A stretch of 64,000 bases of DNA from a virus. This document shows, in pieces, positions 4,629-61,633 of the stretch. The translations under genes and the position numbers were made by a program. The number at the start of each line of letters is the position of its first letter. The stretch's first letter is position 1. The notes under the pieces were generated by a model that did not search any database, was not told the origin of the DNA, and worked only from the letters and a program-made list of their open reading frames with translations. The stretch is from the IMG/VR virus record IMGVR_UViG_3300038393_001444, positions 1 through 64,000 of that record; one strand, written 5' to 3'.

Positions 4629-4643
4629 AGTCTGCAATCACGA
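4629..4643 (-). promoter_or_regulatory. putative late promoter TCGTGATTGCAGACT
   Basis: Matches the TCGTGAYnnnAnnnT consensus; divergent pair. Confidence 0.75.
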
Positions 4644-4647
4644 ACCG

Positions 4648-4662
4648 TCGTGATCCTATCCT
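4648..4662 (+). promoter_or_regulatory. putative late promoter TCGTGATCCTATCCT
   Basis: Consensus match, intergenic. Confidence 0.75.
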
Positions 4663-4692
4663 TGCGGAAACCATCTATCCCGCGAGGCTCCT

Positions 4693-4962
4693 ATGTTCCC
4701 GTCCCTGAATTCCCAGCTGGCGATCAACACGCCGACCGTGGTCAAGCCGCAGGCTGGCCGCATCATGAAGGTGTCCGTCCTGGTGGCTGGAACTGCCGCC
4801 GGCGGCGTCTATGACTCCCAGACCACCAGCGCCGCCGCCCTGCAGAATCAGGTGGCGGTGATCCCGGCCGCGATCGCGGTGATCGATCTGCAATTCCAGT
4901 GCCGAAATGGCATCACCGTGGTGCCGGGCACGGGCCAGACGCTGGCCGTTTCGTTCGCCTAA
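4693..4962 (+). CDS. small beta-rich protein, probably virion-associated
   Basis: A/V/T/G-rich composition; own late motif; GAGG SD. Confidence 0.6.
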   Translation: MFPSLNSQLAINTPTVVKPQAGRIMKVSVLVAGTAAGGVYDSQTTSAAALQNQVAVIPAAIAVIDLQFQCRNGITVVPGTGQTLAVSFA

Positions 4963-4972
4963 AACCGCATCG

Positions 4973-4987
4973 TCGTGACGTTACCCT
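4973..4987 (+). promoter_or_regulatory. putative late promoter TCGTGACGTTACCCT
   Basis: Consensus match, intergenic. Confidence 0.75.
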
Positions 4988-5011
4988 GCGGGAAATTCCC
5001 AAGGGGTAACG

Positions 5012-8000
5012 ATGCTCGATCTCTCTGCTGGCCTGTCCGGGCCGATCCTGTTTCTGAAGGCCACGCAAAAGAAACAGGTGTTCATTCCCGCCTTTGTCCG
5101 CGCCGATGGCACTCCGGTGGCAGGGCACTACAAGTCGGTCCACGTTACCGACGATCACGATGATCACAAGGTAGCGCACGGGCAGGGCTCGCACAGCCAG
5201 AAGATCGCCCACGCGAAGCTGGCGCAGCACGATTGGTTCCACGCGCTGCCGACCGAGCACAAGGCCGCGATCGTGATGGCGCATGCCACGGATCATCAGG
5301 ACATGGATTCGGCCAATGCGCGCGCCTCCACGCTGAAGAAGAAGATCCTGGCCGGCGAAAAGCCGACGCCGTCCGAGTGGCGCGCCTGGGGCTATGTCGA
5401 GGCCGACAAGCGCCAGAAGCTCTACGATGAGATCACCGAAGCCGGGCAGGGCCCGTTCTTCCAATCCGCCATGGATGCGGACGCCGTGGCCAAGGGCGTC
5501 GAAGCCCGGAAAGAGCGCCTGGAGCATCAGCCCGCCGCGCCGGCCGACGTGAAGGCCGCCGAGCAGCCCAAGGAAGAGCCCAAGGCCGAGGAAAAGCAGC
5601 CCGAGCCGGCCGCAGCGCCCGAAGCGCCGAAGGCCGAGGACAAGCCCGCCGCGCCCGCGCAGGAGCCCGCCAAGGCCGCCGCCGGCGGCGAGCATGCGGA
5701 CTTCCTGGCCAAGCTGCATGCCGCCGCGCTGCCGCCCGAGAACGTCAATGCGTCCTCGTTCAACCTGAAGCTCAAGCTGATCCAGCAAGCCTTCGAAATA
5801 GGCGATGCCAAGACGCTGCTGGGCATGTCCTACGGCACGAACACCTACGGCAAGAAAGCTGCCAAGCTGGTGAATGAGGCCCTGGCCGTGCTCGGCCATG
5901 AGCACAAGGTCGAGCCGGGGCAGAAGGCTGGCGCGCATCCCGCGCTGGCCGGAGATCTGTCGCCGAAAGCCGAAAAGGAGCCGCCCAAGGATGAACCGAA
6001 GCCCGCAGAGCCGGCCCCAGCGCCGCAAGCAGCCGAGAGCGCGCAGCCCGAGAAAGCCGAAGCCGCTGCCGAGCCCGCCCCGGCTGCCGAACCCGTAGCC
6101 GAAGCGCCGGCCGCGAGCGAAACGGGAAATCCCGTTTTGGCCGATTCTCAAGCAAACGGCACGCTGGCCATGCCCGAGTTCGAAGAGGGCAAGGAAAAGG
6201 CCGGCGTCAAGGATTACTACGAGAAGGTCGCGCAAAAGATTATCGACCACGCCAGCGCCGGGAATGTCGCTGTGCTGGAGGATATGAAAGACGCGGGCCT
6301 GAAGCCGAACAAGAACGGCAAGGTCGGCAACACGTGGAAGGGAAAAACCGGCAACAGCAAGAAGCTGCTGGAGCTCTATGACGCCGCGCTGGCGCATGCG
6401 AAGGGGGAAGGCGCTGCCGCCGCCCCTGCCGCGCCCGCTGCCGTGGACGATGGCCCGAAGGAAGGCGATACCAAGACCGCCGCTGATGGCGGAACGCTGG
6501 TGCTGAAAGACGGCCACTGGATCAAGCAGGAAGAGCCGCAGGCGGCTGCCGCGCCGGGACCGCATGACGAACTGCTGGGGCAGGCCAAGGCCGCCGGCTT
6601 CGAAGTGAAGGTGAGCGGCATTCATGGAGTGGTGCTGGCCAATGGCAGCGGCATCATGAAAATGTATGCCAACAAGACGCAGGCCGAAAACGCCGTCCAG
6701 AACCTGAAGCAGAGCGGTTTCGATGCGCACGTGATCGGCCAGCATCCGTTCGCGGTCAAGATCACGGGCAAGGCGGCCGAGCCCGCGCCGGTGCTGGATG
6801 CGCCTGCTGCCGCGACCGACAAGGCCGCCAAGCATTACGTGCTGGATGCCGAGAATGCCGCCGCCAAAAAGGGATTGGTCGGCCAAGCCATGACCGCGCA
6901 CGTGTACGAGGCCGCGAAGCAGTGGCTCGATGCGCACCCGGGCAAGCTGGAAGAGCTCAATGCTGGGCTGGACGCGCTGGGTTATGCCAAGTTCCCCGAG
7001 CCGGCTGCCGCTGCCGCGCCAGCCGCGCCGGTCCCGCTGACCGACGCCGAGATCGGCGACAAGCCCAGCGGCGTGAACACTGATTTTTTCAACTCCGCGA
7101 AGAAGGCCGCGCTGGCCGGCGATCTGGCTGGGCTCAAAAAGCTGGCGCAGACCGCGCTGGACGAAAGCTATCCGAACACGGCGAACCATCTGCAGGGCAT
7201 GGCGGCCGCGCTCGAGGCCAAGCAGGGCGGCGCGCAGCCGGCCGGTGTCGATGAGAAAGCCGAGCAGGCCGCGATCACGATGGGCGAGAAGATGGCCGCT
7301 GACGGCGAGCTCGCGGATCTGGCCGAACTGATCCAGAACACGAAGGGCACGGTTTCCGATATCGCGCACAAGTACCTGCAGAAGCTGCTGGGCGATGCGA
7401 AAGACAAGCTGGCCGCCGAGGCTGCTGCCGCCGCCGGCAAAGAGCCGCCGAAGCCGACCGTCGCGCCGTCGCTGCAGAGCATTGTCGATGATGCGAAGTG
7501 GGCCTATGACAACGGCGAGCATCAAACGCTGTCCGATATCGCCGATTACGTGAAGGATCTCGATACCAGCGCCGACGCGCCGAAGATCCAGCAGTATGTC
7601 GCTGCGCTGCAGGGCCTGCAGAAGCCCGCGCGCCATGAGAAGCCGGCCGCGCAGCTCGCGCCGGAAGCCGCCCCAGCTGCGCCCGCCGCCAAGCCTTCGA
7701 TCACCCTGGCGGATCTGCCGTCGATCCCGGTGCTGAACCTGCAGAAGAACAAGGATCTGGCCGAGCACATGCAGCAGCTGGCGCTGGCCGGCGATCTGGC
7801 CGGGATTCAGGCGCTGCAGCAGACCGACAAGGTGAAGAACATCGGCAAGCTGTCGGGCTATTCGTACCAGCTGACGCAAGCGCTGATGCAGAAGGGCATC
7901 GTGACGCCGGTTCCTGGTGCTGACGCCGCACCCGCTGCCGATCAGGGCCCGAAGGATGGCGACACGAAGCAGGGCGCGAACGGCATGCTGGTGTTCAAGG

Positions 8001-10384
8001 ATGGTCGCTGGCACAAGATGGGCGACGATCCGAAGGTGCTCGCTGCCAAGGCCAATTCCATCGGCATGCCGAAGCTCACCGGCACGGCATCGATCAAGCT
8101 GACCAAGGTAATGAAGGGCCTGAAGGAAATCGCCAAGGAAGGCGGCGAGAAGGGCCTGAAGCTGGCGGTGAAGGAAATTGGCTCTTCGATACAAGTGTCG
8201 GCCGGCGGCTACACATTCAAATTCAACAAGGATCTGTCCGGATCGGGCCCGAATGGCAAGGCCGCAGGCCAGTACATCATGAACCTGATGGCCGCCATGG
8301 AAGGAACGAGCGGCCCGGTCGCGCCGAAGGTGGTGGGCGCATCGTCCTACGATCCGGCCGCCGCCGGCGAAGCGGCTGCCGCGCAGGAAGCCGCCGACAT
8401 GCAGGCCAAGTCTGCCGGCAAGGGCACGGCCGCGCCGATCGCCGGCAACAAGACCGAAAAGCTGGGCAAGGTGTCGGTGATGATCGCCGATGGCTGGGAG
8501 CAGACGGGCCCGCAGGGCGGCTCCAATCCTGGCGGCCGCTTCAAGGATGCGAAAGGGCAGGAATGGTATATCAAGCTGCCCAGCGATCCGGATACCGTCA
8601 AGAATGAAATGCTGGCGGCGAAGTTCTACGAAATGCTCGGCGCGAAGGTGCCGCAGCTGCGGCTGGTCAAGAAGGACGGCAAGCTGGGCATCGCGTCGAA
8701 GTGGGTCGATGGCATCAAGAAGGGCAGCGCCGAGCAGCTGGCGGCCGCCGATGGTGCGCACTCCGGGCATGTGTTCGATGCGTGGCTGGCCAATTGGGAC
8801 GTGGTCGGCCTGTCCAACGACAACCTGATGCTGGACAAGGATGGCAAGGCGCTGCGCGTCGACGTGGGCGGCTCGCTGGTCTACCGCGCCATGGGGAGCA
8901 AGAAGGGCGCGGCCTTCGGCAACGAAGTCACCGAGCTCGAAACGCTGCTGGATCACGGCAAGAACAGCAAGAGCGCCGCCGTGTTCGCCGGCATTTCCAA
9001 GGCATCGATCGACGCTGGCGCGAAGCAGCTGGCGAAGATGCACCCGAGCCAGATCGATACCCTGGTCGATATGTTCGGCCCGGGCAGCGACGCGGAAAAA
9101 GCCGAGCTCGCGCAGAAGCTCAAGGCGCGCCGCGAATTCATCCTGAAGAAGCTGGGCGTCGATGATCCCTGGAACAAGCCGGCCCCGGATCTCTCGAAGC
9201 TGCCGGTCAATCCGGACGATATGCCGCCGCCGATCAACTTCAGCGACTACATGGGCAGCGGCAAGGGCCTGTCATCGAAGGAGCACATCAACAAGCAGAA
9301 CACGATCGATGATGCGAACCTGATCGCCTTCGCCAAGCAGGGCAACCTGAAGGCGCTGCAGGACTACCATTACGATGCCTACGACAAGGAAACGGGCAAG
9401 TTCATCGGCAAGAAGCCGATCGGCGAGCATCCGAACAAGGATATCAAGAACCATTGGGCGTCCCTGTGCGATCTGCTGACGTCGGTGGCGCACCCGCCGG
9501 TTGAGGGCCTGGATCTGCCGCCGATCGGTGGCGGCTCGATCGAGGAAGTCGCCGAGCAGGCCGGCTACTTCAAGCCGGGCGAGAACATCAAGACGATCTC
9601 TGCCGAAAAAGTCGTGGGCTTCTGGATGAAGCTGGGCCACGTCGGCGCGGAAGCGGTGGCGGATCTGATGCCGCAGAAGCCGCGCTTCCTGAAGGGCGAT
9701 TTCGTGACGAAGGCGAAGCAGTGGTACAAGGCCGCCAGCGAAACCACGAAGGCCCTGGTCAACTCGATTCAGGATTCCGGCCATTACAACCGCTTCTGGA
9801 ACAACGGCGACAAGCACATCAGCATCAGCTCCGGCGGCCATAAGTACAGCGGCGGCGCGCAGACGCTGGCCAGCCAGATCTATCAGGAAGCCTTCGAATT
9901 CGATGAAGGTGAGACGATCGGCCGCTGGATGAACCTGTCGGAAGGCATGAAGCAGCAGCTGCTCAAGGAAGGCCCGGGGCTGGTATTCCAGAACGCCGAT
10001 TCCATGTGCGCATCGATCTTCAAGGATTGGGGCGACAACGCCAAGTTCGGTTCCGGCGCATTCCTCAACATCAAGTTCGCCAAGGGCGCGAAGGCGATGG
10101 CCTCGCTGGGCTCCGGCCGCTTCAAGGGCACGGGCCAAGACAAGGATGGCAACTATATCCATTCGGGCGGCGGCGGCGAAATGGAAGTCACGACGCTCAT
10201 GGGGCAGCGGTTCGTGGTGCTGGGCATCAAGCAGGGCAATGCCTCGAGCCCGAACGGCATCACCCTGGATCTGCTGGCGCTGCCGCCGCATGAAGGCTAC
10301 GTGGCCGAGCTCGGACAGCAGGCCGCGATGGGCAAATCGCTGACGGATGGCGTGTTATTATTCTTGAAAAGCAAGGGAAACTGA
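5012..10384 (+). CDS. 1790-aa polyvalent protein: repeats and linkers, HipA/PI3-4K-like kinase domain, C-terminal VIP2/Alt-like ADP-ribosyltransferase domain
   Basis: GGSNPGG..WYIK..NEMLA..DAWLANWD..DN..RVDVG kinase pattern; R...SMCAS...LNIKFAKGAKA...EMEV...GQRFVV ART pattern. Confidence 0.75.
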   Translation: MLDLSAGLSGPILFLKATQKKQVFIPAFVRADGTPVAGHYKSVHVTDDHDDHKVAHGQGSHSQKIAHAKLAQHDWFHALPTEHKAAIVMAHATDHQDMDSANARASTLKKKILAGEKPTPSEWRAWGYVEADKRQKLYDEITEAGQGPFFQSAMDADAVAKGVEARKERLEHQPAAPADVKAAEQPKEEPKAEEKQPEPAAAPEAPKAEDKPAAPAQEPAKAAAGGEHADFLAKLHAAALPPENVNASSFNLKLKLIQQAFEIGDAKTLLGMSYGTNTYGKKAAKLVNEALAVLGHEHKVEPGQKAGAHPALAGDLSPKAEKEPPKDEPKPAEPAPAPQAAESAQPEKAEAAAEPAPAAEPVAEAPAASETGNPVLADSQANGTLAMPEFEEGKEKAGVKDYYEKVAQKIIDHASAGNVAVLEDMKDAGLKPNKNGKVGNTWKGKTGNSKKLLELYDAALAHAKGEGAAAAPAAPAAVDDGPKEGDTKTAADGGTLVLKDGHWIKQEEPQAAAAPGPHDELLGQAKAAGFEVKVSGIHGVVLANGSGIMKMYANKTQAENAVQNLKQSGFDAHVIGQHPFAVKITGKAAEPAPVLDAPAAATDKAAKHYVLDAENAAAKKGLVGQAMTAHVYEAAKQWLDAHPGKLEELNAGLDALGYAKFPEPAAAAAPAAPVPLTDAEIGDKPSGVNTDFFNSAKKAALAGDLAGLKKLAQTALDESYPNTANHLQGMAAALEAKQGGAQPAGVDEKAEQAAITMGEKMAADGELADLAELIQNTKGTVSDIAHKYLQKLLGDAKDKLAAEAAAAAGKEPPKPTVAPSLQSIVDDAKWAYDNGEHQTLSDIADYVKDLDTSADAPKIQQYVAALQGLQKPARHEKPAAQLAPEAAPAAPAAKPSITLADLPSIPVLNLQKNKDLAEHMQQLALAGDLAGIQALQQTDKVKNIGKLSGYSYQLTQALMQKGIVTPVPGADAAPAADQGPKDGDTKQGANGMLVFKDGRWHKMGDDPKVLAAKANSIGMPKLTGTASIKLTKVMKGLKEIAKEGGEKGLKLAVKEIGSSIQVSAGGYTFKFNKDLSGSGPNGKAAGQYIMNLMAAMEGTSGPVAPKVVGASSYDPAAAGEAAAAQEAADMQAKSAGKGTAAPIAGNKTEKLGKVSVMIADGWEQTGPQGGSNPGGRFKDAKGQEWYIKLPSDPDTVKNEMLAAKFYEMLGAKVPQLRLVKKDGKLGIASKWVDGIKKGSAEQLAAADGAHSGHVFDAWLANWDVVGLSNDNLMLDKDGKALRVDVGGSLVYRAMGSKKGAAFGNEVTELETLLDHGKNSKSAAVFAGISKASIDAGAKQLAKMHPSQIDTLVDMFGPGSDAEKAELAQKLKARREFILKKLGVDDPWNKPAPDLSKLPVNPDDMPPPINFSDYMGSGKGLSSKEHINKQNTIDDANLIAFAKQGNLKALQDYHYDAYDKETGKFIGKKPIGEHPNKDIKNHWASLCDLLTSVAHPPVEGLDLPPIGGGSIEEVAEQAGYFKPGENIKTISAEKVVGFWMKLGHVGAEAVADLMPQKPRFLKGDFVTKAKQWYKAASETTKALVNSIQDSGHYNRFWNNGDKHISISSGGHKYSGGAQTLASQIYQEAFEFDEGETIGRWMNLSEGMKQQLLKEGPGLVFQNADSMCASIFKDWGDNAKFGSGAFLNIKFAKGAKAMASLGSGRFKGTGQDKDGNYIHSGGGGEMEVTTLMGQRFVVLGIKQGNASSPNGITLDLLALPPHEGYVAELGQQAAMGKSLTDGVLLFLKSKGN

Positions 10385-10884: not shown

Positions 10885-10899
10885 TCGTGACTGTAGGCT
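10885..10899 (+). promoter_or_regulatory. putative late promoter TCGTGACTGTAGGCT
   Basis: Consensus match, intergenic. Confidence 0.75.
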
Positions 10900-10929: not shown

Positions 10930-11928
10930 GTGCTGCTACTCTTCAAATCCCACGTCAAGGGCTATACGCGCGCCGATGGCACGTATGTGCCGCCGCATGA
11001 AACCAAGGTAGTCAAGAAAGCGCCCGCGCCGCAGAAGGCGCTGTTCGATCACAAGGCCCCGCTGCCGGCGGAAGCCTATGCCGGCAAGGATCTGCCTGCC
11101 GCCGCCGCGCCGAAGAGCGTGGCATCCGCGCACATGGAGCAGATCAAGAGCGCGCTGCAGCAGCCCAAGGCGAAGAAGTGGGTGAACTCCCTGCACTCCG
11201 GCAAGCAATTCGGCAAGGACAGCGCCGGCGAGAGCAAGGGCGCGTATCAGGGCGGCCTGTTCGGTGGCCACAAGGGCTACGAAAAGGAAAAGCCGCACTA
11301 CCCGAACGCGATCACGCATCCGCAGGCCGGCGACAAGGGCGAGCCGATCCAGATCAACGAGCCGAGCAAGCCATCCCTGGCCGAAACCTGGGAAGATCCG
11401 GACGCCACGGCCACGTTCGTGCCGGGCTCGGCGGTGCCGCGCGAGCTCAACGGCGTGGCCATGCAGACGTGGGCCGATGCGCCGACCACGGATATCGAGT
11501 GGAACAATGTGCCCGGGCAGGACATGGATCTGGAAGAGCCGGAGTTCATCCTGCCCAAGGGCAAGAAAGCCGCCGCCGGCGTGATCATCGAAGAGCCGGA
11601 CGGCCGCGTGTGGCTGCTGCGCCCGACCAATGGCTTCGGCGGCTACGACGCCACGTTCCCGAAGGGCCGCATCGATCCCGGCATCGGCATGCAGGCCAGC
11701 GCCATCAAGGAAGCTTTCGAGGAAACCGGGCTGCAGGTGGAGATCACCGGGTTCGTGTGCGATATCGAGCGCAGCGTCACGATGGCCCGCTTCTACCGCG
11801 CGCGCCGCGTCGGCGGAACGCCGAAGGACATGGGCTGGGAAGCGCAGGCGGTGCAGCTGGTGCCCAAGGATGAACTGCATCAGGTGCTCAACACGGAAGT
11901 GGACCGGCATATCGCCAAGCAGGCATGA
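10930..11928 (+). CDS. Nudix hydrolase with long N-terminal extension
   Basis: FPKGRIDPGIGMQASAIKEAFEETGL Nudix box variant; AAAGVII beta-1 strand. Confidence 0.85.
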   Translation: MLLLFKSHVKGYTRADGTYVPPHETKVVKKAPAPQKALFDHKAPLPAEAYAGKDLPAAAAPKSVASAHMEQIKSALQQPKAKKWVNSLHSGKQFGKDSAGESKGAYQGGLFGGHKGYEKEKPHYPNAITHPQAGDKGEPIQINEPSKPSLAETWEDPDATATFVPGSAVPRELNGVAMQTWADAPTTDIEWNNVPGQDMDLEEPEFILPKGKKAAAGVIIEEPDGRVWLLRPTNGFGGYDATFPKGRIDPGIGMQASAIKEAFEETGLQVEITGFVCDIERSVTMARFYRARRVGGTPKDMGWEAQAVQLVPKDELHQVLNTEVDRHIAKQA

Positions 11929-11930: not shown

Positions 11931-11945
11931 TCACGCAAAGCGTGA
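11931..11945. promoter_or_regulatory. palindromic operator TCACGCaaaGCGTGA
   Basis: Perfect 6-3-6 palindrome; one of five related sites. Confidence 0.65.
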
Positions 11946-11953
11946 TAAAAGAC

Positions 11954-11983
11954 TTGCATTGATATAACTCCATGCGTTATTCT
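11954..11983 (+). promoter_or_regulatory. sigma70-type promoter TTGCAT-18-TATTCT containing operator TAACTCcatGCGTTA (11965-11979)
   Basis: AT-rich island; -35/-10 match; operator copy in the spacer. Confidence 0.65.
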
Positions 11984-12017: not shown

Positions 12018-12470
12018 ATGTGGATCTCTTTCAATACCGCCTTCCTTTCCATCGTAGAACCGCGCGCCATCGATCTCGTCCCGGGTGAGGGCGATGTGCT
12101 GCTGGTGCGCGCCAGGGTGCGCGGCCATATCGAATCGGTGTTCCCGAACGCGCAGGTGCTGCGCCGCCCGGGCCGCGATTACCTGTACCGCGCCTTCATC
12201 GATCGCGCCACGGTCGCGCAAGTGGTCATGGGCAAGGTGCTCGGCATCCACTACCCGAACTTCAAGGATTCGGTGAAGGATGATGAACTGCACGATGCCT
12301 ACGCCGGCGTCTGGCGCGTCATGTCGCACCTGCAGAAGGTGCGCCCGTATGGCGATGACTCGGCCGCTGCGCGCCGCGCCGAGGATGAGCGCGCCGGTGT
12401 CAAGGGCTTCGCTGCCAAGAAAAAGCCGGCCCGCGCCAAGCGCACGGGCGATCTGTTCGCGGGAGCCTGA
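12018..12470 (+). CDS. hypothetical phage protein (MWI...FLSIV...DYLYRA...YPNFK)
   Basis: GGAG SD; first gene after the promoter. Confidence 0.75.
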   Translation: MWISFNTAFLSIVEPRAIDLVPGEGDVLLVRARVRGHIESVFPNAQVLRRPGRDYLYRAFIDRATVAQVVMGKVLGIHYPNFKDSVKDDELHDAYAGVWRVMSHLQKVRPYGDDSAAARRAEDERAGVKGFAAKKKPARAKRTGDLFAGA

Positions 12471-13323: not shown

Positions 13324-13338
13324 TCGTGACGGCATGCT
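13324..13338 (+). promoter_or_regulatory. putative late promoter TCGTGACGGCATGCT
   Basis: Consensus match immediately after the terminator. Confidence 0.75.
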
Positions 13339-23633: not shown

Positions 23634-23648
23634 TCGTGACGCTAGAGT
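23634..23648 (+). promoter_or_regulatory. putative late promoter TCGTGACGCTAGAGT
   Basis: Consensus match upstream of portal. Confidence 0.75.
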
Positions 23649-27469: not shown

Positions 27470-27760
27470 ATGAGCTATTCATTCAGCGCCATCGGCGCAG
27501 ACAAGGAAGCCGCCAAGGCGGCAGTGGTCGAGGAATTCGACAAGCAGGTGCTGGCCTGCCAGCCGATCCATGTGCGCGACCGCGCTGCCGTGATCGCGCA
27601 TGCGCATGCCATGATCGATCTGCTTCCGGACGATCCGAGCAAGGCGGTGCATATCGCCTGCAACGGTTACGTGAGCTCGCCGATCCATGGCGATCCTGCC
27701 GAAGTGCCGCTGTCCGTGGCATCGGCCACCGCCTCGGCATCGCTGATCGAAAGGTCGTGA
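27470..27760 (+). CDS. hypothetical protein
   Basis: Strong AAGGAGG SD. Confidence 0.7.
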   Translation: MSYSFSAIGADKEAAKAAVVEEFDKQVLACQPIHVRDRAAVIAHAHAMIDLLPDDPSKAVHIACNGYVSSPIHGDPAEVPLSVASATASASLIERS

Positions 27761-27769
27761 CGCCATAGT
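27755..27769 (+). promoter_or_regulatory. putative late promoter TCGTGACGCCATAGT
   Basis: Consensus match; no complete ORF before the next terminator. Confidence 0.7.
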
Positions 27770-27775: not shown

Positions 27776-27831
27776 GTCTCCTGGAAGAGATGGAAGATGG
27801 ATTCGGCCCGCGCTCGTCGCGGGCTTTTTTT
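27776..27831 (+). ncRNA. putative ~56-nt late small RNA
   Basis: Bounded by late motif and terminator; 5' UCUCCU, three UGGA motifs. Confidence 0.5.
27806..27831 (+). terminator. Rho-independent terminator
   Basis: GCCCGCG-ctcgt-CGCGGGC-T7. Confidence 0.9.
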
Positions 27832-27833
27832 GT

Positions 27834-27848
27834 TCGTGACGCCATGCT
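27834..27848 (+). promoter_or_regulatory. putative late promoter TCGTGACGCCATGCT (ATG 6 nt downstream)
   Basis: Consensus match; leaderless geometry. Confidence 0.8.
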
Positions 27849-32392: not shown

Positions 32393-32407
32393 TCGTGATT
32401 GCAGGAT
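32393..32407 (+). promoter_or_regulatory. putative late promoter TCGTGATTGCAGGAT (ATG 7 nt downstream)
   Basis: Consensus match. Confidence 0.75.
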
Positions 32408-32864: not shown

Positions 32865-32879
32865 TCGTGACGGAAAGAT
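32865..32879 (+). promoter_or_regulatory. putative late promoter TCGTGACGGAAAGAT (ATG 8 nt downstream)
   Basis: Consensus match. Confidence 0.75.
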
Positions 32880-36144: not shown

Positions 36145-36164
36145 TCCTTCGGGATTGGTGAAAA

Positions 36165-36189: not shown

Positions 36190-36204
36190 TCGTGACACTA
36201 GCCT
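36190..36204 (+). promoter_or_regulatory. putative late promoter TCGTGACACTAGCCT
   Basis: Consensus match right after the terminator. Confidence 0.75.
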
Positions 36205-36986: not shown

Positions 36987-37012
36987 AGGGCGGGGTGATC
37001 CCCCGCCCTTTT
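36987..37012 (+). terminator. Rho-independent terminator
   Basis: AGGGCGGGG-tgatc-CCCCGCCCT-TTT. Confidence 0.75.
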
Positions 37013-37019: not shown

Positions 37020-37034
37020 TCGTGATGCCAGACT
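37020..37034 (+). promoter_or_regulatory. putative late promoter TCGTGATGCCAGACT
   Basis: Consensus match after the terminator. Confidence 0.75.
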
Positions 37035-45150: not shown

Positions 45151-45165
45151 ATTCTGCCGTCACGC
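45151..45165 (-). promoter_or_regulatory. putative late promoter GCGTGACGGCAGAAT (ATG 6 nt downstream)
   Basis: One mismatch to consensus; divergent pair. Confidence 0.7.
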
Positions 45166-45174: not shown

Positions 45175-45189
45175 TCGTGACGCGAAGAT
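45175..45189 (+). promoter_or_regulatory. putative late promoter TCGTGACGCGAAGAT (ATG 6 nt downstream)
   Basis: Consensus match. Confidence 0.8.
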
Positions 45190-54101: not shown

Positions 54102-54109
54102 TGCCCCTG

Positions 54110-54124
54110 TCGTGATGCAACACT
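54110..54124 (+). promoter_or_regulatory. putative late promoter TCGTGATGCAACACT (ATG 6 nt downstream)
   Basis: Consensus match. Confidence 0.8.
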
Positions 54125-54130
54125 TGGGGC

Positions 54131-55276
54131 ATGACCGCCCCATCCAGCCAGAAAGCCGATGCCCGGCCGATCTCCTTCGTATTTTGGGATCGGGCCGGCG
54201 GCGCGCAGCCGCAGACGATGACGCTGGCCATCCGGCCGGAAGAGCTCACGCGCGCCATGCCATCGCGCGCGGTGGTGCAGCAAACGCTGGGCGATCCGTA
54301 TGTCGATTCCTTCGGCGAGGGCCTGCCCACGATCACGCTGGCCGGGCATACCGGCTGGCGGCCGGGCCTGTCCTCGAGCGATCCTGGCGATGGTCTGGCG
54401 CGCTTCCAAGCCCTGAAGGAAATGGTGTTCACGAACTGGCACCGCCGGCGCGCCGCCGCGATCGAGGCGGGCCTTGATCCGGATGGCGTCGAACTGACCT
54501 TCTCCGATGCGCTGGACAATTTCTCGGTGCGCGTCATGCCGATGCAGTTCGTCCTGCGCCGCTCGCGCAGCCGCCCGCTGCTTTGCCAGTATCAGATCCA
54601 GCTGGTGGAGCTCACTACCGAACTCGATGCGCAGCCGCTGGAAAAAAAGCTGTCGGCCCTGGAAAAGCAGAAGCTCGGGCTGGCGTCGCTGACCGACTCG
54701 ATCAACAAGATCGCCGGCCAGATCAACAACGTGAAAGCCTGGATCGATGCCACGCTGGTCGCGCCGGTCAAAGCCTTCATGCAGCAGACGCAGGCGCTGT
54801 TCTCGGCGGTCAAAAACGTGGTGGCCGCCGTCGATGGCGTGGCCGGCTCGCTGATCTCGGTGGCGCAAATGGCCGCGCAAGCCGGCGCGAACTTGTTCCG
54901 CTCGCTGGCCACGGTCGCCGCGCTGCCGTCGCTGGCCAAGCAGCGCTTAATGGAGATCGGCAGCGCCTACGTCAACGTGTTTTGCGTGATGAAGAATGCG
55001 CTGCTGCAGAAAGTAACTTTCCAGTCCTTCGACGGTATCCTGGGCGCGTCCGGCTGCTCGTCCACGGCCGGCGGCGCGCCGCTGTCGGCCTTCGGCAGCG
55101 GCAACACCTTCGCCTCGGTGCTGCCGCTGGCGTCGAAGCTGCCGGTGTCGCTGACCTCGGGCGCGCAGAGCGGGCTGGCCAAGCTGGCGCAGGCCGATAT
55201 CGTCAATGCGCCGCTGTCCTCGGGTGATCTGAAAAGCGCGGTGACCGCCGCCTCGACCATGGTGGTGACGGCATGA
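54131..55276 (+). CDS. baseplate/tube initiator-like protein
   Basis: IRPEEL...QQTLG...D.FG.G...ITL.G.TG...RS.SRPLL..Y. Confidence 0.65.
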   Translation: MTAPSSQKADARPISFVFWDRAGGAQPQTMTLAIRPEELTRAMPSRAVVQQTLGDPYVDSFGEGLPTITLAGHTGWRPGLSSSDPGDGLARFQALKEMVFTNWHRRRAAAIEAGLDPDGVELTFSDALDNFSVRVMPMQFVLRRSRSRPLLCQYQIQLVELTTELDAQPLEKKLSALEKQKLGLASLTDSINKIAGQINNVKAWIDATLVAPVKAFMQQTQALFSAVKNVVAAVDGVAGSLISVAQMAAQAGANLFRSLATVAALPSLAKQRLMEIGSAYVNVFCVMKNALLQKVTFQSFDGILGASGCSSTAGGAPLSAFGSGNTFASVLPLASKLPVSLTSGAQSGLAKLAQADIVNAPLSSGDLKSAVTAASTMVVTA

Positions 55277-55893
55277 GCAGCGTGTTCGATCGTGAGCGCA
55301 TCGGCTTCCGGTTCGTGGAAGTGCAGCAGGATGATTCGCTGCAGCTGATCGCCTTCCGCGCGCTGGGCGACGCGGCGCGCTGGACCGAACTGATCGCCTA
55401 CAACAACCTGATCCCGCCCTTCGTTACCAACGACGCCACGATCACGGCGGCCGGCGTGCTGCATCCCGGCGACTTGATCATGGTCCCGGCGGTCACGGCG
55501 GCAGCGGCCGCCGCGCAGAACGTCGGCGACGATGTGCTTCTGACCGATGCGGCGCTGGTCAACCGCCGCCTGGGCGCGGCCAATGGCGATTTCGCGCTGG
55601 TGTCGGGGCTGGCCAACCTGAAGCAGGCGCTGATCAATGCGCTGGATACCGATCGCGGCGACCTGATTTTCCATCCGCAGTACGGCTCGCTGATCCGCCG
55701 CATCATCGGCGCGGTCAACGGCCCCACGGCCACGCTGCTCGCGGCCGAGTATGCGAAGGGGCCGGTGGCGGCCGATCCGCGCATCCTGCGCGTGACCTCG
55801 GCGGTGGCGGTGGCCGATGGCGACGCCATCCGCGTCACGATCGAAGCCGAAAGCGCGCTCGGGCGGCAAGTCGCCGTGGATGCAACTCTGTAA
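55273..55893 (+). CDS. LysM-like plus gp25/W-like baseplate wedge protein
   Basis: VQQDDSLQLIA...LGD..RW..L...N; NLKQAL...HPQYGS...DPRI. Confidence 0.75.
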   Translation: MSSVFDRERIGFRFVEVQQDDSLQLIAFRALGDAARWTELIAYNNLIPPFVTNDATITAAGVLHPGDLIMVPAVTAAAAAAQNVGDDVLLTDAALVNRRLGAANGDFALVSGLANLKQALINALDTDRGDLIFHPQYGSLIRRIIGAVNGPTATLLAAEYAKGPVAADPRILRVTSAVAVADGDAIRVTIEAESALGRQVAVDATL

Positions 55894-55905
55894 GGAACGG
55901 GCAAC

Positions 55906-57021
55906 ATGGCATTTCAGACCAAGGACTTCGTATCGATCGCCGCATCCATGATCAACTGGATGAAGGCCGCACAGCAGAAGGTCACCGATTTTTCCATCGG
56001 CTCGGTGGTGCGCACGATGCTGGAATCCATCGCCGCCGAGATCGAGCAGCTGTACCAGCAAATGTTCATCGGCCTGAAAGAAGCGATTCCGGTGGCGGTG
56101 TACAACACCTTCTCGTTCACCAAGATCGGCGCGATCCCTGCGACCGGCACGATCCGCGTCACGGTCACGTCCTCGGCGTCGAGCCTGCTGATCCCGTCCG
56201 GCACTGCCTTCGCGCTGGTCACGGGCGCGCAGTACCTGTCCACGTCGGACGTGACGATCGCCGCCGGCAACACCTATGCCGATGTGCCCGTGGCTGCCGC
56301 CGTGCCCGGCGCAGCAGGCAATCTCACGGCCGGGCAGACGTTCACCGCCACGCCATCGCCGTCCGGCTTCGTGTCGGCGTCCAATCTCGCGCCGATCCGC
56401 AATGGCAGCGATGCCGAATCCGATGATGCGCAGAAGGTGCGCTTCAATGCCTACCTGCAGAGCCTGTCGCGCGGCACGATCGCCTCTTACCTGTACGCGC
56501 TGAACTATCTTGTGTCGCTCACGGATGCCGCCGGCAACGTCACGGAAAAGGTGGCGAGTGCCGTGGTCATCGAGCCATGGCTGACCGACAACACCCAGCC
56601 GGTGGCGAACGTGAACGTGTATATCCATAACGGCGTCGGGTCCACCAGCGCGGCCCTGGTCGCGCAGGCGATCAAGATCCTGACCGGGTACACGGATGCG
56701 AGCGGCAACAAGATCCCGGGCTACAAGGCCGCCGGCGTGAACCTCACCCTGGTGGCGGCTACCGAGCAGGCGGTCAACGTCACGGCCACGCTCACGGCGG
56801 TGTCGGGCTACGACAAGCCGACGCTGGTTACGGCCGCGCAGCAGGCGATCTACGGTTACCTGATCGGGCTGCCGATCGGTGCGCCGGCGCTGTTCGCCGA
56901 GATCGTGCAGCTGGCCATGGATATCCCGGGCGTCTATAACTTCGCGCTCACCGCGCCGGCGGCCGATACCACGCCGGCTTCCTCGGGCAAGATCATGCCC
57001 GGCACGATCACGATCAGCTGA
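55906..57021 (+). CDS. baseplate J-like protein
   Basis: GSV.RT..E, ATG.I, PG..GN, GSDAESD...R, AAGV. Confidence 0.85.
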   Translation: MAFQTKDFVSIAASMINWMKAAQQKVTDFSIGSVVRTMLESIAAEIEQLYQQMFIGLKEAIPVAVYNTFSFTKIGAIPATGTIRVTVTSSASSLLIPSGTAFALVTGAQYLSTSDVTIAAGNTYADVPVAAAVPGAAGNLTAGQTFTATPSPSGFVSASNLAPIRNGSDAESDDAQKVRFNAYLQSLSRGTIASYLYALNYLVSLTDAAGNVTEKVASAVVIEPWLTDNTQPVANVNVYIHNGVGSTSAALVAQAIKILTGYTDASGNKIPGYKAAGVNLTLVAATEQAVNVTATLTAVSGYDKPTLVTAAQQAIYGYLIGLPIGAPALFAEIVQLAMDIPGVYNFALTAPAADTTPASSGKIMPGTITIS

Positions 57022-57023
57022 CG

Positions 57024-58142
57024 ATGAAGCTCACGCAAAAACTGCTCGGGTTCTTCGGCCGGGTCTTTTCGAAGAACCCGGATGCCTTCCTGGCGCTGCG
57101 CTTGCGCTACAACGGCGGCATGTCCTGGGCGATTGCGGACGGCATGCTGACCACGGTCGTGTCCGGCGGCATCGGGAGCAATCTGTCGATCGATCTGACG
57201 CAGTACACGGTGCGCCAGCTGGTGGCGTTCCTGGCGGCGCAGCCCGGCTACTCGGTCGCCTACGCCGAGACGGGCCAGCTTGCGGATCTGTCGGCGCGGG
57301 TGCTGATCGATGGCGGCGCGAACATCGCCGATTCGAATGGCGACCACATTTCCGGCTACACCAACCTGTTGTGGGCCTTTGTCGACGCCGGCGGCGGGGA
57401 GCTCGAGCATGCGGCCGCGCAGATCGATCAAATGCTGCTGCAGCTGGACACGCATACGGCCAGCGCCGAGTGGCTGGACGAGCTCGGCGGCTATTACGGG
57501 GTGCCCCGGCTGCAGGGCGAATTCGACGCGCAGTATGCGCCGCGCATCATCGCCGAAGTGCTGCGCCCGCGCGACAACAACATCGCCATGGAGCTCGCGC
57601 TGCAGCAGTACACCGGGCAGCCGGCGCAGGTGGTCGACGTGGTCGAATACGGCAGCGGCACCGGGGTGTTCATCTACAACAGCGCCTATTCCTACAACGG
57701 CGCGAAGCAATACAACAGCGCGAGCCAGCCGATCTACGGCAAGTTCGACGTGGTGTATTCCTACGATCTGCTGGGCGGCACCGATCCGAACGCCTTCGCG
57801 CAAACGATCCGCGATCTGATCAACCGGCTGCGCGCGGCGGGTACGCACTTGCGCGCGATGAGCCTGCAGACGTCGGCCATCATGGATACGGTCACGCCGC
57901 CGACCGATGGCGGCGATCTGCAGTTCGCCGGCGCGCTGGCGCTGGGCGATACGGTCGCAACTCCTGGCGACTCCATGAGTTTGTTGCAAGCGGCCATGGC
58001 GGCGCTCGCCGATACGGTGGCCGCAAGCACGGACACGATCAGCTTGTCGATCACTTCCGGCGCGGTGTATGGCGGCAACCGCAGCTTCAACAGCGCCATC
58101 ACCTACAGCAACACCGGGACGCCGGCGGCGGAATCCTTCTAG
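57024..58142 (+). CDS. baseplate wedge protein (I-like)
   Basis: TAS.EWLD..G.YYGV.R..GE.D..Y..RI; AAGT. Confidence 0.75.
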   Translation: MKLTQKLLGFFGRVFSKNPDAFLALRLRYNGGMSWAIADGMLTTVVSGGIGSNLSIDLTQYTVRQLVAFLAAQPGYSVAYAETGQLADLSARVLIDGGANIADSNGDHISGYTNLLWAFVDAGGGELEHAAAQIDQMLLQLDTHTASAEWLDELGGYYGVPRLQGEFDAQYAPRIIAEVLRPRDNNIAMELALQQYTGQPAQVVDVVEYGSGTGVFIYNSAYSYNGAKQYNSASQPIYGKFDVVYSYDLLGGTDPNAFAQTIRDLINRLRAAGTHLRAMSLQTSAIMDTVTPPTDGGDLQFAGALALGDTVATPGDSMSLLQAAMAALADTVAASTDTISLSITSGAVYGGNRSFNSAITYSNTGTPAAESF

Positions 58143-58147: not shown

Positions 58148-58162
58148 TCGTGATTCGATCAT
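58148..58162 (+). promoter_or_regulatory. putative late promoter TCGTGATTCGATCAT
   Basis: Consensus match; AGGAGG SD follows. Confidence 0.75.
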
Positions 58163-58185: not shown

Positions 58186-58629
58186 GTGAAATTAACCGAC
58201 GATGTGAAAGGCCCGACCGGGCGATTTGTGCTGAACGTGTTCAAGCACGGCCAGCTGATCGAACGCTTCGAAGAAGACAACTTGGTGGTGGATGCGTCCA
58301 AGCAGCCGCTGGCCAAGCTGCTCGGCGGCTCTGTTACCAATCAGTCCGTCACGCAAATCGCCTTCGGCACGAACGGCACGGCTCCCGCCAACAGCAACAC
58401 GGCGATCACGAGCCCCTACACCAAGGGCTTCGATTCGGTCACGTACCCGGCAAGCAATCAGGTGTCCTTCAACTTCTCGCTCGGCTCCACGGAAGACAAC
58501 GGCGTGGCCATCATCGAGTTCGGCCTGCTCACGGCTGCCGGTGCGCTGTTTGCGCGCAAGGTCCGGTCCTCGGCCTTGAACAAGGACACCGATATCTCTT
58601 TCACCGGCAGCTGGATCATCAGCTTCTAA
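58186..58629 (+). CDS. baseplate/tail-fibre attachment protein
   Basis: NLVV...IAFGT...EDNG..I.EFGL...LFARK...W.I.F. Confidence 0.7.
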   Translation: MKLTDDVKGPTGRFVLNVFKHGQLIERFEEDNLVVDASKQPLAKLLGGSVTNQSVTQIAFGTNGTAPANSNTAITSPYTKGFDSVTYPASNQVSFNFSLGSTEDNGVAIIEFGLLTAAGALFARKVRSSALNKDTDISFTGSWIISF

Positions 58630-58638
58630 GGATAGGCC

Positions 58639-59940
58639 ATGGCCAACATTGTTGAATCAGTCAATTACGATACCGGCGTCTATCAGATCGCCACGACCGA
58701 TCCGGTGCAGGGCGGCGCGGGTGGCATCGCCAACTTGGCCGCGCAGAATCTTGCGAATCGCACCGCGTACCTGAAGCAGCACCTCGACAACCTGGAGTCG
58801 GGCGCAACCATCCCCAGCACGGTCGCGCCGAAGAACTCGCCGGTGTTCACGGGTGATCCGCAGGCCCCAACGCCGGCGCTGGGCGACAACGACACGTCGA
58901 TCGCCACGTCGGCCTTCGTGCAGGGCACGGTCAACGGGGTGCTGAACAAGTCAGTCGCCGGCAGCGCCAACGTGACGCTGACGGCAATCGAAGCCGGCAA
59001 TGGCATCTGGATTCTGACCGGCGCACTGAACGCCAACATCGATGTGATCGTGCCGGGCACGTCCAAGCAGATGCTGGTCGTGAACCGCACGACCGGGGCC
59101 TATACGCTGCGCGTGAAAACCTCGGCCGGCGCGGGTGTGTATGTCATGCAGGGCATGCAGCAGGAACTGTTCTGCGATGGCACCGACGTGAAGGTGGCCA
59201 CGAACGATTTCTCGAATCAGGTGCTCGATCTGTCGGTCACGCAAAGCGCCTCGGCCGCGCAGTTCGACAACTCGCTGAAGCTGGCCAGCACGGCATTCGT
59301 GCAGCGCGCGCTGGGCAATATCGCCGGCCAAACGGTAATCAGCGGCAACGCGACGCTGACGGCGGCGAATGCCGGCCAGCTGGTCCTGTTCAATGGATCT
59401 TCGGCGTCCACGATTACGCTGCCGGCGGTAAGCGCCATGCCGGGCGGATCGCAGATTCACTTCATGAGCATTGGCACCGGCACACTGACGATTGCCCGCG
59501 CCGGCACCGATGCCATCAACGTGAACAGCGGCCAGAACGTCCAAATGACGCTGAGCAATGGCGACACCCTGACGCTGGAAAGCACGGGGTCCGTCTGGAA
59601 CGCCGTGGATGGTTCGGGCCAGCTGAAATATGCAAGCGTTTTCGGAGCATCGTTCGCGGCTGCCGGTTACCAGAAATTGCCTTCGGGTCTGATCATCCAA
59701 TGGTGCTATAGCACTTACCTGAATGTTCCGGCTGGCACGCAAGTTAATGCAATTACCAGTTGGCCGACTCCATTTCCGAACGCCTGCCTATGGGGTGGCC
59801 CGGTGTGCGAAGTTCCGAGCGGAACAAACATCAACGTGTTTCTGAGCACGTATGTTTCCAGCACCACCCAAGTGGGCGCGGCGATCAATAGCGCGTCGAC
59901 ACAAAACGTCACAGTCTATTTCATCGGCATCGGATATTAA
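58639..59940 (+). CDS. tail fibre protein
   Basis: LANRT.YLK, SPVFTG.P.APT, IAT.AFV repeats, GYQKLPSGLIIQW. Confidence 0.9.
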   Translation: MANIVESVNYDTGVYQIATTDPVQGGAGGIANLAAQNLANRTAYLKQHLDNLESGATIPSTVAPKNSPVFTGDPQAPTPALGDNDTSIATSAFVQGTVNGVLNKSVAGSANVTLTAIEAGNGIWILTGALNANIDVIVPGTSKQMLVVNRTTGAYTLRVKTSAGAGVYVMQGMQQELFCDGTDVKVATNDFSNQVLDLSVTQSASAAQFDNSLKLASTAFVQRALGNIAGQTVISGNATLTAANAGQLVLFNGSSASTITLPAVSAMPGGSQIHFMSIGTGTLTIARAGTDAINVNSGQNVQMTLSNGDTLTLESTGSVWNAVDGSGQLKYASVFGASFAAAGYQKLPSGLIIQWCYSTYLNVPAGTQVNAITSWPTPFPNACLWGGPVCEVPSGTNINVFLSTYVSSTTQVGAAINSASTQNVTVYFIGIGY

Positions 59941-59949
59941 GGGGCGCTC

Positions 59950-60510
59950 ATGTTTTATTTTTCCGCAAAGACCGGCGGCATTTACGATATGTCGTTTCAC
60001 GACTACGAATTGCCGGCCGATGCCGTCGAAATCACCGCCGAAGAGCGTGCCGCGCTATTCGCCGCGCAGCAATCCGGAAAGATCATTCAAGCCGATGCGG
60101 ACGGCAAGCCTGTCGCCGTGGATCGCCCGGCCGAAACACTGGCGGCGATGAAGGCGCGGCTGTCTGCGGCGATCGATTCCCTGGTCGAAGGCATTTACGA
60201 AAAATACACGAAATTCCAAGTCGCCTACACGCCGCGCGAAGCGGCCGCGCGCGCCTTCAAGGCGGCCGGCTATGTCGGCGATCCCGGCCTGTGGGTGACT
60301 GGCTTCGCGGGCCCGGCCGGGCTCACGAACCAGCAGGCGGCCGACAAGATCATCGCGCAGGCAGATGCTGCTTATGCCGCACTGCCACTGATCGATGCGC
60401 AGCGCATGCGCAAGTATTCGCTGGCCGCTGCCGATGGCATGGCGAACGCGCAAGCGCTGTATGACGATATCGTGGCGCAGATCGCCACGGCGGCCGCGAG
60501 CCTGCAATGA
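59950..60510 (+). CDS. tail fibre assembly protein
   Basis: YFS..TGG.Y...PADAVEIT.EE...Q.GK.I..D..G.P. Confidence 0.8.
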   Translation: MFYFSAKTGGIYDMSFHDYELPADAVEITAEERAALFAAQQSGKIIQADADGKPVAVDRPAETLAAMKARLSAAIDSLVEGIYEKYTKFQVAYTPREAAARAFKAAGYVGDPGLWVTGFAGPAGLTNQQAADKIIAQADAAYAALPLIDAQRMRKYSLAAADGMANAQALYDDIVAQIATAAASLQ

Positions 60511-61019
60511 ACTACGCCGCCGCGCGCGACCTGATCCAGGACGGCGACGTGGTCGTGGTCAAGCGCCGATCCAGCGCGCTGGCCGTGCTCACGCGGCTGG
60601 TCACGCGCTCGCCCTATACGCACACCGGCATCGCCGTGTGGAGCGGCGGGCGGCTGCTGCTGGTGCAGGCCAATGGCGGCGGCGTGAACGCGGCCCCGCT
60701 GTCGCAGGAAGCCGAATTCGCCTTCGACGTGTACGATCCGCCGGCCGGGCTGGCTCGCTCGGAGATCGTGCAAGCGGCATGGGATGCGATCGGCGCGCGC
60801 CTGTCGTATGCCATCGCGGATCTCTTCGAGATCTGGCTGTACCTGTGGTTCGGCATCCCGCTGCCGGAAAAGCCCGGCGAAGATCCGATCTGCTCGCTAC
60901 TCACGGCGCGCATCCTGATGGCCGCCGGCTGGGCCCCGGTCAATCTGCCGTCGATTCCCTGGCCCAGCGCCGTCGCGGATGCGCTCGGCAAGCCGCCGCG
61001 CCTGTCGGTGGTGCCGTGA
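60507..61019 (+). CDS. permuted papain-like (YiiX/YebB/YaeF-type NlpC/P60) enzyme
   Basis: IQDGDVV...TRSPYTHTGI...Y...ICS (His before Cys). Confidence 0.75.
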   Translation: MNYAAARDLIQDGDVVVVKRRSSALAVLTRLVTRSPYTHTGIAVWSGGRLLLVQANGGGVNAAPLSQEAEFAFDVYDPPAGLARSEIVQAAWDAIGARLSYAIADLFEIWLYLWFGIPLPEKPGEDPICSLLTARILMAAGWAPVNLPSIPWPSAVADALGKPPRLSVVP

Positions 61020-61600
61020 TGCTCGCGCGCTTTTTGATCCTGCTGCTGGCCGATCTGCTGGCCAACCTGCTCGGCTATCTGCTCAATCCTATCGTGGTGC
61101 TGTTCGGCGACGCCGCCGGCGCGCTGCCGCGCGCGCTCGCGTGGTTCGCCACGCCGGACGCCACGCTGGACGGCATGGGTGCGGACGGCAAAATCGAGCC
61201 GCGCTTTCTGGCCGCCACCGAATCCTGGCGCGGCGCGGATCTGCTGCCGAAGAGCCGTTGGCATCGCTACCTGTGCCGGGTGTGCTGGCTGTATCGGAAC
61301 AATGTGAACGGCTTTTCGACGGCCGTCACGGGCGCGCCGGGGCCGTTCTGGCTGCTGTCGCGGGATCTGCAGGGCAGTGAGCCGGCCGATCGCTATCCAG
61401 CGGCGAGCGGGCGCGATTATGCGGTCTGGCGCGGCAGCGATGGCCGCTCGTACTTCAGCTATCGCTATGTGCAGGACCGGGGCAACGGCAAATGCTTCGA
61501 AGCCTACGTGGGCTGGAAGATCAGCGAAACCGCGCCGCGCGCGATGCTGGTCTGCCGCTGGACGCCGATCCGCGAGTTTGAATCCACGCCGCCGGCGTAG
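61019..61600 (+). CDS. hypothetical protein with N-terminal membrane segment (LP..L.WF.TPD..LDG...WL.RN...GWK)
   Basis: TGATG coupling. Confidence 0.7.
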   Translation: MLARFLILLLADLLANLLGYLLNPIVVLFGDAAGALPRALAWFATPDATLDGMGADGKIEPRFLAATESWRGADLLPKSRWHRYLCRVCWLYRNNVNGFSTAVTGAPGPFWLLSRDLQGSEPADRYPAASGRDYAVWRGSDGRSYFSYRYVQDRGNGKCFEAYVGWKISETAPRAMLVCRWTPIREFESTPPA

Positions 61601-61618
61601 GCTTGATTCCGAGCAATG

Positions 61619-61633
61619 TCGTGATGGGATGAT
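61619..61633 (+). promoter_or_regulatory. putative late promoter TCGTGATGGGATGAT (ATG 6 nt downstream), lysis cassette
   Basis: Consensus match. Confidence 0.75.

Follow-up and report, generated by a model that had tools for sequence, protein, structure and literature searches.

In phage lambda, the Q gene ends the early rightward operon and a single late promoter, PR', is used, with a pause-inducing -10-like element in its transcribed region. Phages P2, 186 and P4 rely on the zinc-finger activators Ogr, B and Delta, which bind TGT-N12-ACA near position -55 of their late promoters. The late promoters of T4 have the sequence TATAAATA and are read by gp55, gp33 and gp45, while the middle and late promoters of Thermus phage P23-45 are of the extended -10 kind and are used once the phage has disabled recognition of the -35 box. 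In phage P1, 11 late promoters are bound by Lpa, which acts together with the host protein SspA (PMC10695390; PMC1891329). The P1 record annotates these promoters as a "-22 region" of 9 base pairs (bp), 4 nucleotides (nt) and then TANNNT, e.g. ATGTGACTT-N4-TACCCT, AAGTGACTT-N4-TAAAAT and AAATGACTA-N4-TAGAAT. The first 64,000 nt of IMG/VR virus record IMGVR_UViG_3300038393_001444, referred to here as the window, carry many copies of another compact element, TCGTGAYnnnAnnnT, at gene boundaries. Judged from its sequence context, this motif is very probably a phage-specific late promoter. The best overall explanation, which is reasonably likely, is that it serves as the late promoter of a clade of approximately 90-kb phages and is read by host RNA polymerase together with a phage factor, for which a protein of 188 amino acids (aa), named P0001 here, is a candidate.

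The motif was searched as TCGTGAYNNNANNNT, with dinucleotide-preserving shuffles as the null. The window holds 17 exact matches against 0.49 expected (shuffle maximum 3). An earlier note on this DNA had listed 17 sites, all of which are real and have correct coordinates and strands; 16 are exact and one, at 45151-45165(-), is the GCGTGA variant it was said to be. Two copies were absent from that list, an exact one at 577-591(-) and a GCGTGA variant at 11940-11954(+). Over the whole 94,344-bp genome there are 19 exact copies, and the extra two precede an HU-like gene, at 77628(+), and a small-terminase-like gene followed by the methylase gene, at 92447(+). Using a crude gene list, 13 of the 17 exact copies in the window lie at most 75 nt upstream of a co-oriented gene (binomial p = 5e-12), and the copies at 32393 and 37020 precede open reading frames (ORFs) missing from that list (32415-32660 and 37053-37469). 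The sites had been described as standing at gene boundaries, and this holds: they are non-coding and co-oriented with virion, packaging, cargo and lysis units, with only the site at 27755 facing nothing other than a terminator. Genes found downstream encode an HNH endonuclease, a giant protein of 1790 aa, a NUDIX protein, the large terminase TerL, the portal, a SNF2-like protein of 1510 aa, a protease, the major capsid, neck-like, sheath, tube, tape-measure, baseplate and tail-fibre proteins, and the endolysin unit. Terminators do lie immediately upstream of four sites (13324, 27834, 36190 and 37020), and the intragenic TCGTGA copies that had been spot-checked indeed lack the A/T pair. Copies with one mismatch are mostly intragenic and antisense. 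No copies occur in the leftward block at 16.2-23.6 kb and nearly none at 64-92 kb, and no canonical sigma-70 promoters were found on the plus strand of the late region at 27.4-37.1 kb.

The bare hexamer TCGTGA is itself in surplus in the window, with 68 copies, approximately 51 of them outside the motif, against 31 +/- 5 expected. The surplus lies mostly on the minus strand within plus-strand genes and is probably an effect of codon usage. Two motif-like copies lie on the sense strand inside genes: TCGTGAA..A...T at 48757-48771(+), 103 nt before the gene at 48874, and GCGTGAA..A...T at 62165-62179(+). These may be weak internal promoters, as in the low-GC relative G010, or may have arisen by chance.

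The anatomy of the element was read from an alignment of 73 exact sites taken from the window's phage genome and five cultured relatives. A-11 and T-7 are set by the search pattern itself; conservation was also seen at positions that were not searched, namely G-22 (59/73), G-14 (46/73), A or C at -8 (69/73), C-1 (42/73) and A+1 (38/73), and A-9, likewise outside the pattern, is enriched. The consensus can be written as G(-22), TCGTGA(-21 to -16), Y(-15), G(-14), any base, the hexamer c-A(-11)-n-A-(A/C)-T(-7), 6 nt, C(-1) and A(+1). Positions -45 to -23 carry no information, and the element therefore has no -35 box or UP-like element. The invariant TG of the element sits at -18/-17. Past +3, no conserved element is found in the same alignment.

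Sigma-70-type promoters usually start transcription 7 nt after the last T of the -10 box. Among 74 sites in the six genomes, the ATG of a long ORF lies 6 nt past the final T of the motif at 17 sites, 7 nt past it at 6 and 8 nt past it at 1, and no ATG is found at 4, 5 or 9 nt; the background of 0.0085 per position predicts approximately 0.6 per offset. Within the window, the spacing is exactly 6 nt at the start codons at 27855, 45196, 54131, 61640 and 45144(-). Because the usual start is 7 nt past the last T, the A of such an ATG coincides with the predicted +1 and the messenger RNA is predicted to be leaderless. That transcripts from the motif often begin directly at the ATG is a strong inference from this spacing. 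At the remaining sites the leader measures 18-63 nt and includes its own Shine-Dalgarno sequence, which argues against a translation signal. The earlier note had read the motif as a -10 element (A-11, T-7) with TCGTGA at -21 to -16 and no -35 box, and this reading is supported by the ATG spacing, C-1 and A+1, the uninformative -35 region and conservation among relatives.

Intergenic and co-oriented placement would equally fit an RNA-level signal, and several DNA methylases are encoded in the clade. A cis signal other than a promoter, such as a site for RNA processing, translation, antiterminator loading, methylation or packaging, is nevertheless highly improbable. The distance to the ATG is either 6-8 nt or variable with a Shine-Dalgarno sequence in the leader, as fits a start site, and the A-N3-T spacing with C-1/A+1 is the geometry of a promoter. 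In addition, the back-to-back pairs 4629/4648 and 45151/45175 each face their own gene, and copies stand right after terminators, where a new start is needed.

Two further observations concern the starts of these messages. At 54101-54133, a read-through transcript could fold so that GUGCCCC, which precedes the promoter, pairs with GGGGCAU and hides the start codon, a stem of 7 bp that is impossible in the promoter-started message; it is weak (z = -1.2), and no stem covering the ATG was found at the other three leaderless sites that were folded. In relatives, some late promoters are followed by a GC hairpin that begins at about +1 and by a stretch of U residues stopping right at the ATG of a small gene, e.g. 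the small gene before the endolysin, without a Shine-Dalgarno sequence. Such leaders were seen at two loci of fHe-Yen8-01 (L055:30138-30200 and L056:10225-10290), ECML-606-1 7544(-), Dolphis 28082(+), ST4 3882(-) and Mecenats66 64879(+). Attenuation, message stability or U-rich enhancement of translation are possibilities for these terminator-like leaders.

The element is shared by relatives of the phage. In IMG/VR relatives whose terminase is 44-54% identical, 14 of 15 have 5-24 copies, nearly all on one strand, and the reversed control gives 0-2. Strict copies number 8 in fHe-Yen8-01, 10 in ST4, 12 in Dolphis, 9 in ECML-606-1 and 16 in PHB04; these five cultured phages infect gamma- and betaproteobacteria. 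The apparent exception among the 15 IMG/VR relatives, the 43% GC G010, has 2 strict copies, or 14 when Y-15 is relaxed, and its -10 boxes resemble TATAAnAT. Mecenats66 also has 2 exact copies and has largely diverged, with one TCGTGA and one TAGTGA site recognisable. At orthologous genes the element is invariant even though the proteins are just 30-55% identical. The pair of divergent promoters lying between the neck-like gene and the one that precedes the sheath illustrates this across six genomes: the flanks cannot be aligned, and the only columns that do not vary are those of the two boxes, both A/T pairs and both start codons. The leftward member of this pair, at gene 44287-45144(-), has a deviant box, GCGTGA or TAGTGA, in 6/6 genomes. 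Since the leftward box is always deviant, the irreducible core is GTGA at a fixed distance from the hexamer; the deviation suggests a deliberately weaker late promoter at the neck-like gene.

Across at least two proteobacterial host classes and 43-65% GC, the box stays identical as the -10 hexamer drifts with GC. The simplest model is a phage-borne reader of the box combined with the host primary sigma on a minimal -10. The same pattern bears on the alternative that host polymerase, unaided or with a host alternative sigma or other factor, reads the element as an unusual extended -10, and that timing comes from loss of repression, replication or antitermination. G-14, together with T-15 (28/73), resembles the TGn of an extended -10, the genome encodes a CI-like repressor, and antitermination could contribute at the many sites that follow terminators. 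However, the upstream box is the same in phages of Escherichia, Yersinia, Aeromonas, Pseudomonas and Bordetella, and we know of no host sigma consensus that matches TCGTGA at -21 to -16. Reading by host components only is accordingly a distinctly improbable account.

The viral record to which the window belongs is 94,344 bp long, has 63.7% GC and is complete according to CheckV; the window covers its first 64 kb. Judging from its ends, the record is circularly permuted, because a DNA-methylase gene runs across them (93673-94344 into 1-986) and both end ORFs match a single fHe-Yen8-01 methylase gene of 494 aa. In public sequencing runs the phage was found in one only, a soil-metagenome DNA run, and in no RNA run. 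Protein searches place it in a clade of little-studied myophages of approximately 90 kb, the cultured members of which are Bordetella PHB04, Pseudomonas Dolphis, Jeremy and Touem01, Aeromonas ST4, Yersinia fHe-Yen8-01, Escherichia ECML-606-1, Enterobacter phiT5282EW and Morganella Mecenats66; its large terminase is 38-50% identical to theirs. Outside the window, the genome encodes a CI-like repressor (HTH_3 + Peptidase_S24), RecT, a PD-(D/E)XK nuclease and RdgC, and the phage therefore looks temperate. In an immunity-like region at genome positions 72745-76672, outside the window, the CI-like repressor gene diverges from a rightward early operon comprising an HNH gene, an O/DnaD-like initiator, a RusA-like resolvase, two small ORFs and P0001. 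RecT, the PD-(D/E)XK nuclease, RdgC and the single-stranded DNA-binding protein (SSB) are encoded on the opposite strand, farther to the left of this region.

Various candidates can be considered for the factor that reads the box, which the earlier note had taken to be either a phage sigma factor or an activator working with host sigma-70. Sigma70_r2 (PF04542) and Sigma70_r4_2 (PF08281) have no six-frame match in the genome at E <= 10, and control genomes do match. This favours the second option, an activator acting with host sigma-70, to which somewhat better than an even chance can be given. A cryptic phage sigma or sigma-like subunit, which would read the 16-bp element as a long extended -10 in the manner of T4 gp55 or SPO1 gp34 and without an activator, is unlikely. 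The compactness of the element, which adjoins the -10 box, would suit it, as would the invariance of the upstream box in hosts from at least two proteobacterial classes, since this demands a reader encoded by the phage; moreover, late sigmas of the T4 type need no -35 and escape standard sigma models. Against it stand, besides the missing domain matches, a hexamer that keeps the A-11/T-7 typical of the sigma-70 family and the conserved G-14, a feature of extended -10 promoters. Neither of the two clade-universal proteins without an assigned function has the helical sigma-2 fold, the zinc protein P0001 being mixed beta/alpha and the product of gene 44287-45144 alpha/beta.

Several other proteins were set aside as readers of the box. 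The winged helix-turn-helix protein at 3514, put forward in the earlier note as a candidate activator, has no Pfam match and no homologue in the five motif-carrying cultured relatives. No homologue of P1 Lpa was found by tblastn against the phage and five relatives (best E-value 1.9). No RNA polymerase was found in the genome. An early protein of 1048 aa (genome 80013-83159, minus strand), weighed as a possible disguised polymerase, matches nothing in Pfam or PHROG; since none of the five cultured relatives has it, it cannot be what reads a motif common to the clade. The product of 44287-45144(-), considered as a hidden sigma, gives a mixed alpha/beta AlphaFold model (predicted local distance difference test score 84) with a weak match to neck or tail-completion proteins, and no PDB sequence match.

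The non-structural proteins common to all five cultured relatives are the methylase, SSB, the neck-like protein and P0001. P0001 is a basic protein encoded outside the window, at genome positions 76106-76672(+). All nine cultured clade phages have it, and among 50,697 phage records it occurs nowhere else; of 16 further clade records, 15 carry it, among them each of the nine whose completeness is 90% or more. The family comprises 780 clusters at 50% identity. Nine residues, eight Cys and one His, are invariant, and there is a basic CVSCxNRxxE...NxKGxxP stretch. Two putative zinc sites can be drawn from the sequence, C22/C33/C53/C56/H62 and C83/C86/C110/C113. The gene closes the early rightward operon, its start overlapping the preceding ORF, and lacks a late motif; approximately 950 nt further downstream comes the first late promoter, at 77628. 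P0001 has no Pfam or PHROG match, and searches by fold or against the PDB were uninformative (Foldseek best E = 1.5, VIA-align wide best Z = 2.8, PDB profile search, ESM Atlas). In the long forms of the protein (440-680 aa), no Pfam domain was found in the extra part. The identification of P0001 as the activator is tentative and falls short of an even chance. Still more speculative, and somewhat unlikely, is the wider proposal that the P0001 family is a new class of transcription factor that binds GTCGTGAY at -22 to -15, replaces recognition of the -35 box by sigma region 4 on host RNA polymerase, and drives a leaderless late regulon in phages of alpha-, beta- and gammaproteobacteria.

Certain points weigh against reading the element as a promoter for host polymerase and a phage activator such as P0001. 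The hexamer has C at -12 in 39/73 sites and T-12 is not conserved, which makes the -10 box weak for sigma-70. The Pfam models employed would miss a highly diverged sigma such as one resembling T4 gp55. The link between P0001 and the box is based on phyletic pattern, gene position and zinc/basic chemistry, and every clade-specific gene shares this phyletic pattern, so that co-occurrence does not discriminate among them. No match to a known DNA-binding fold was obtained with the AlphaFold model of P0001. In Mecenats66, a homologue of P0001 occurs alongside only 2 exact motif copies. The sole record found with a long P0001 form (32.6 kb, 5 motif copies) is a mosaic relative and is therefore not an independent test of co-occurrence. 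Literature searches returned no description of the motif and no paper on transcription in this clade.

According to the favoured model of host sigma-70 polymerase with a phage activator, RNA polymerase carrying the primary sigma would melt the minimal -10 through A-11 and T-7, and a phage factor made from the early rightward operon would recognise the GTGA-centred box, standing in for the -35 contact. The packaging, head, cargo, neck, tail and lysis units would then turn on jointly after the early genes. Transcription would start 7 nt past the final T, and at about a third of sites this would be the A of the ATG, giving messages with no leader and no Shine-Dalgarno sequence. The individual sites are listed in Table 1.

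Table 1. Copies of the motif in the window and the genes they face.
Feature	Positions	Strand	Description
Predicted late promoter	4629..4643	-	exact; HNH endonuclease 4069-4599(-), phrog_8048; leader of ~23 nt with GGAG ribosome-binding site; back-to-back with 4648
Predicted late promoter	4648..4662	+	exact; before 89-aa ORF 4693-4962
Predicted late promoter	4973..4987	+	exact; before 1790-aa giant cargo-like protein 5012-10384
Predicted late promoter	10885..10899	+	exact; before NUDIX-domain gene 10930-11928
Predicted variant promoter, GCGTGA	11940..11954	+	intergenic; 63 nt before gene 12018-12470, kept in 4/5 relatives
Predicted late promoter	13324..13338	+	exact; right after terminator; large terminase, probable GTG start 13374, end 15998
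Predicted late promoter	23634..23648	+	exact; portal gene, ATG 23674, end 25452; motif at portal in 6/6 genomes
Predicted late promoter	27755..27769	+	exact; no ORF downstream; runs into terminator 27805-27825 and T-run
Predicted late promoter	27834..27848	+	exact; right after terminator; ATG of 1510-aa SNF2-like gene 27855-32387 is 6 nt past final T; predicted leaderless
Predicted late promoter	32393..32407	+	exact; ATG of 81-aa ORF 32415-32660 is 7 nt past final T
Predicted late promoter	32865..32879	+	exact; head-maturation protease, ATG 32888, 8 nt past final T; unit reaches major capsid 34675-36144
Predicted late promoter	36190..36204	+	exact; right after terminator 36160-36185; before gene 36268-36648
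Predicted late promoter	37020..37034	+	exact; right after terminator 36987-37009; before ORF 37053-37469 and later virion genes
Predicted variant promoter, GCGTGA	45151..45165	-	clade-universal gene 44287-45144(-); ATG 6 nt past final T; predicted leaderless
Predicted late promoter	45175..45189	+	exact; 45196-46038, then sheath, tube, tape-measure; ATG at 6 nt; kept in 6/6 genomes
Predicted late promoter	54110..54124	+	exact; virion/baseplate unit 54131-58142; ATG 6 nt past final T
Predicted late promoter	58148..58162	+	exact; 58186-58629 and tail-fibre gene 58639-59940; GGAGG ribosome-binding site in leader
Predicted late promoter	61619..61633	+	exact; lysis unit 61640-62170, 62148-62585, endolysin 62551-63333; ATG at 6 nt
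Exact motif copy	577..591	-	antisense within DNA-methylase gene 39-986; no gene downstream; probably chance or unused

The promoter at 27755 is predicted to give an RNA of approximately 55-60 nt, and the next promoter lies directly past the terminator. Terminator aside, the RNA of 27776-27836 is no more stable than shuffles (z = -0.85). PHB04 has the same promoter-terminator-promoter tandem before its homologue of the 1510-aa gene. The 1510-aa protein itself has a C-terminal SNF2/DEAD-like helicase region and, among cultured relatives, is found in PHB04 only (52% identity). The 1790-aa protein has no Pfam match. Over 600-860 aa it shares 31-40% identity with giant proteins from Dolphis, ST4, ECML-606-1 and fHe-Yen8-01; for the last of these (fHeYen801_129), the annotation gives a particle-associated ADP-ribosyltransferase toxin. 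The 1790-aa protein probably serves as a cargo enzyme that is injected and is controlled by a late promoter.

The clade is common, with more than 1000 clusters at 90% identity for the neck-like marker protein alone, and its hosts include E. coli, Yersinia, Enterobacter, Pseudomonas, Aeromonas, Morganella and Bordetella; no publication was found on the timing of its gene expression. A host-independent late promoter of 16 bp would provide an annotation rule for transcription units and true starts, including ATGs that lack a ribosome-binding site and are misplaced by gene callers. The regulon that the motif would define takes in cargo enzymes that are probably injected. The system could be used in E. 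coli to study a new factor that redirects RNA polymerase and leaderless translation in gammaproteobacteria, and the element is a possible compact, orthogonal, phage-inducible promoter part.

Among described systems, the late promoters of P1 (LPpac, LP23, LP26/LPpmgL, LPhot and others) share most with this element: in both cases they are dispersed over the genome of a temperate myophage (approximately 94 kb), lack a -35 box and have a minimal TANNNT-like -10. Both also have a short, partly palindromic box upstream that is thought to be bound by an activator made from a repressor-controlled early promoter (PMC10695390; PMC1891329; P1 record), and GTGAC occurs in both boxes. The P1 box, however, is 9 bp long (AAGTGACTT-like) with GTGAC-N6-hexamer spacing, whereas the box here is GTCGTGAY with GTGAY-N2-hexamer spacing, 4 bp closer. 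LP26 and LPpmgL share one box, while each promoter here has its own; Lpa has no cysteines, in contrast to the two putative zinc sites of P0001; and leaderless starts are not annotated at the P1 promoters inspected. The element is best placed as a late promoter of the activator-dependent, -35-less kind, outside the P1 family. Extended -10 promoters of the E. coli type (TGn) likewise have no -35, take their specificity from directly upstream of the -10 and conserve G-14, but the invariant block here, at -21 to -16, lies 3 bp upstream of the TGn position, and T-15 is present in just 28/73 sites.

As in P2, 186 and P4, a small phage zinc protein would switch several late operons with host sigma-70 polymerase; unlike in those phages, no position between -45 and -23 is conserved here, and the candidate has 188 aa, two putative zinc sites and no Pfam match. 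The gene for P0001 occupies the same position as lambda Q, at the close of the early rightward operon, where it follows the genes for replication and the RusA-like resolvase and shortly precedes the first late promoter, and both proteins have a CxxC...CxxC zinc motif. There are, however, approximately 18-20 promoters per genome here with nothing conserved past +3, and the two proteins have no sequence or fold match. T4 also has -10-only late promoters and a phage-supplied specificity factor, but their sequence is different, and neither a gp55-like nor a clamp-loader system turned up in the genome studied here. If P0001 reads the box, the mechanism may run parallel to that of Lpa/SspA in P1 and MotA/AsiA in T4, with proteins unrelated to these in sequence.

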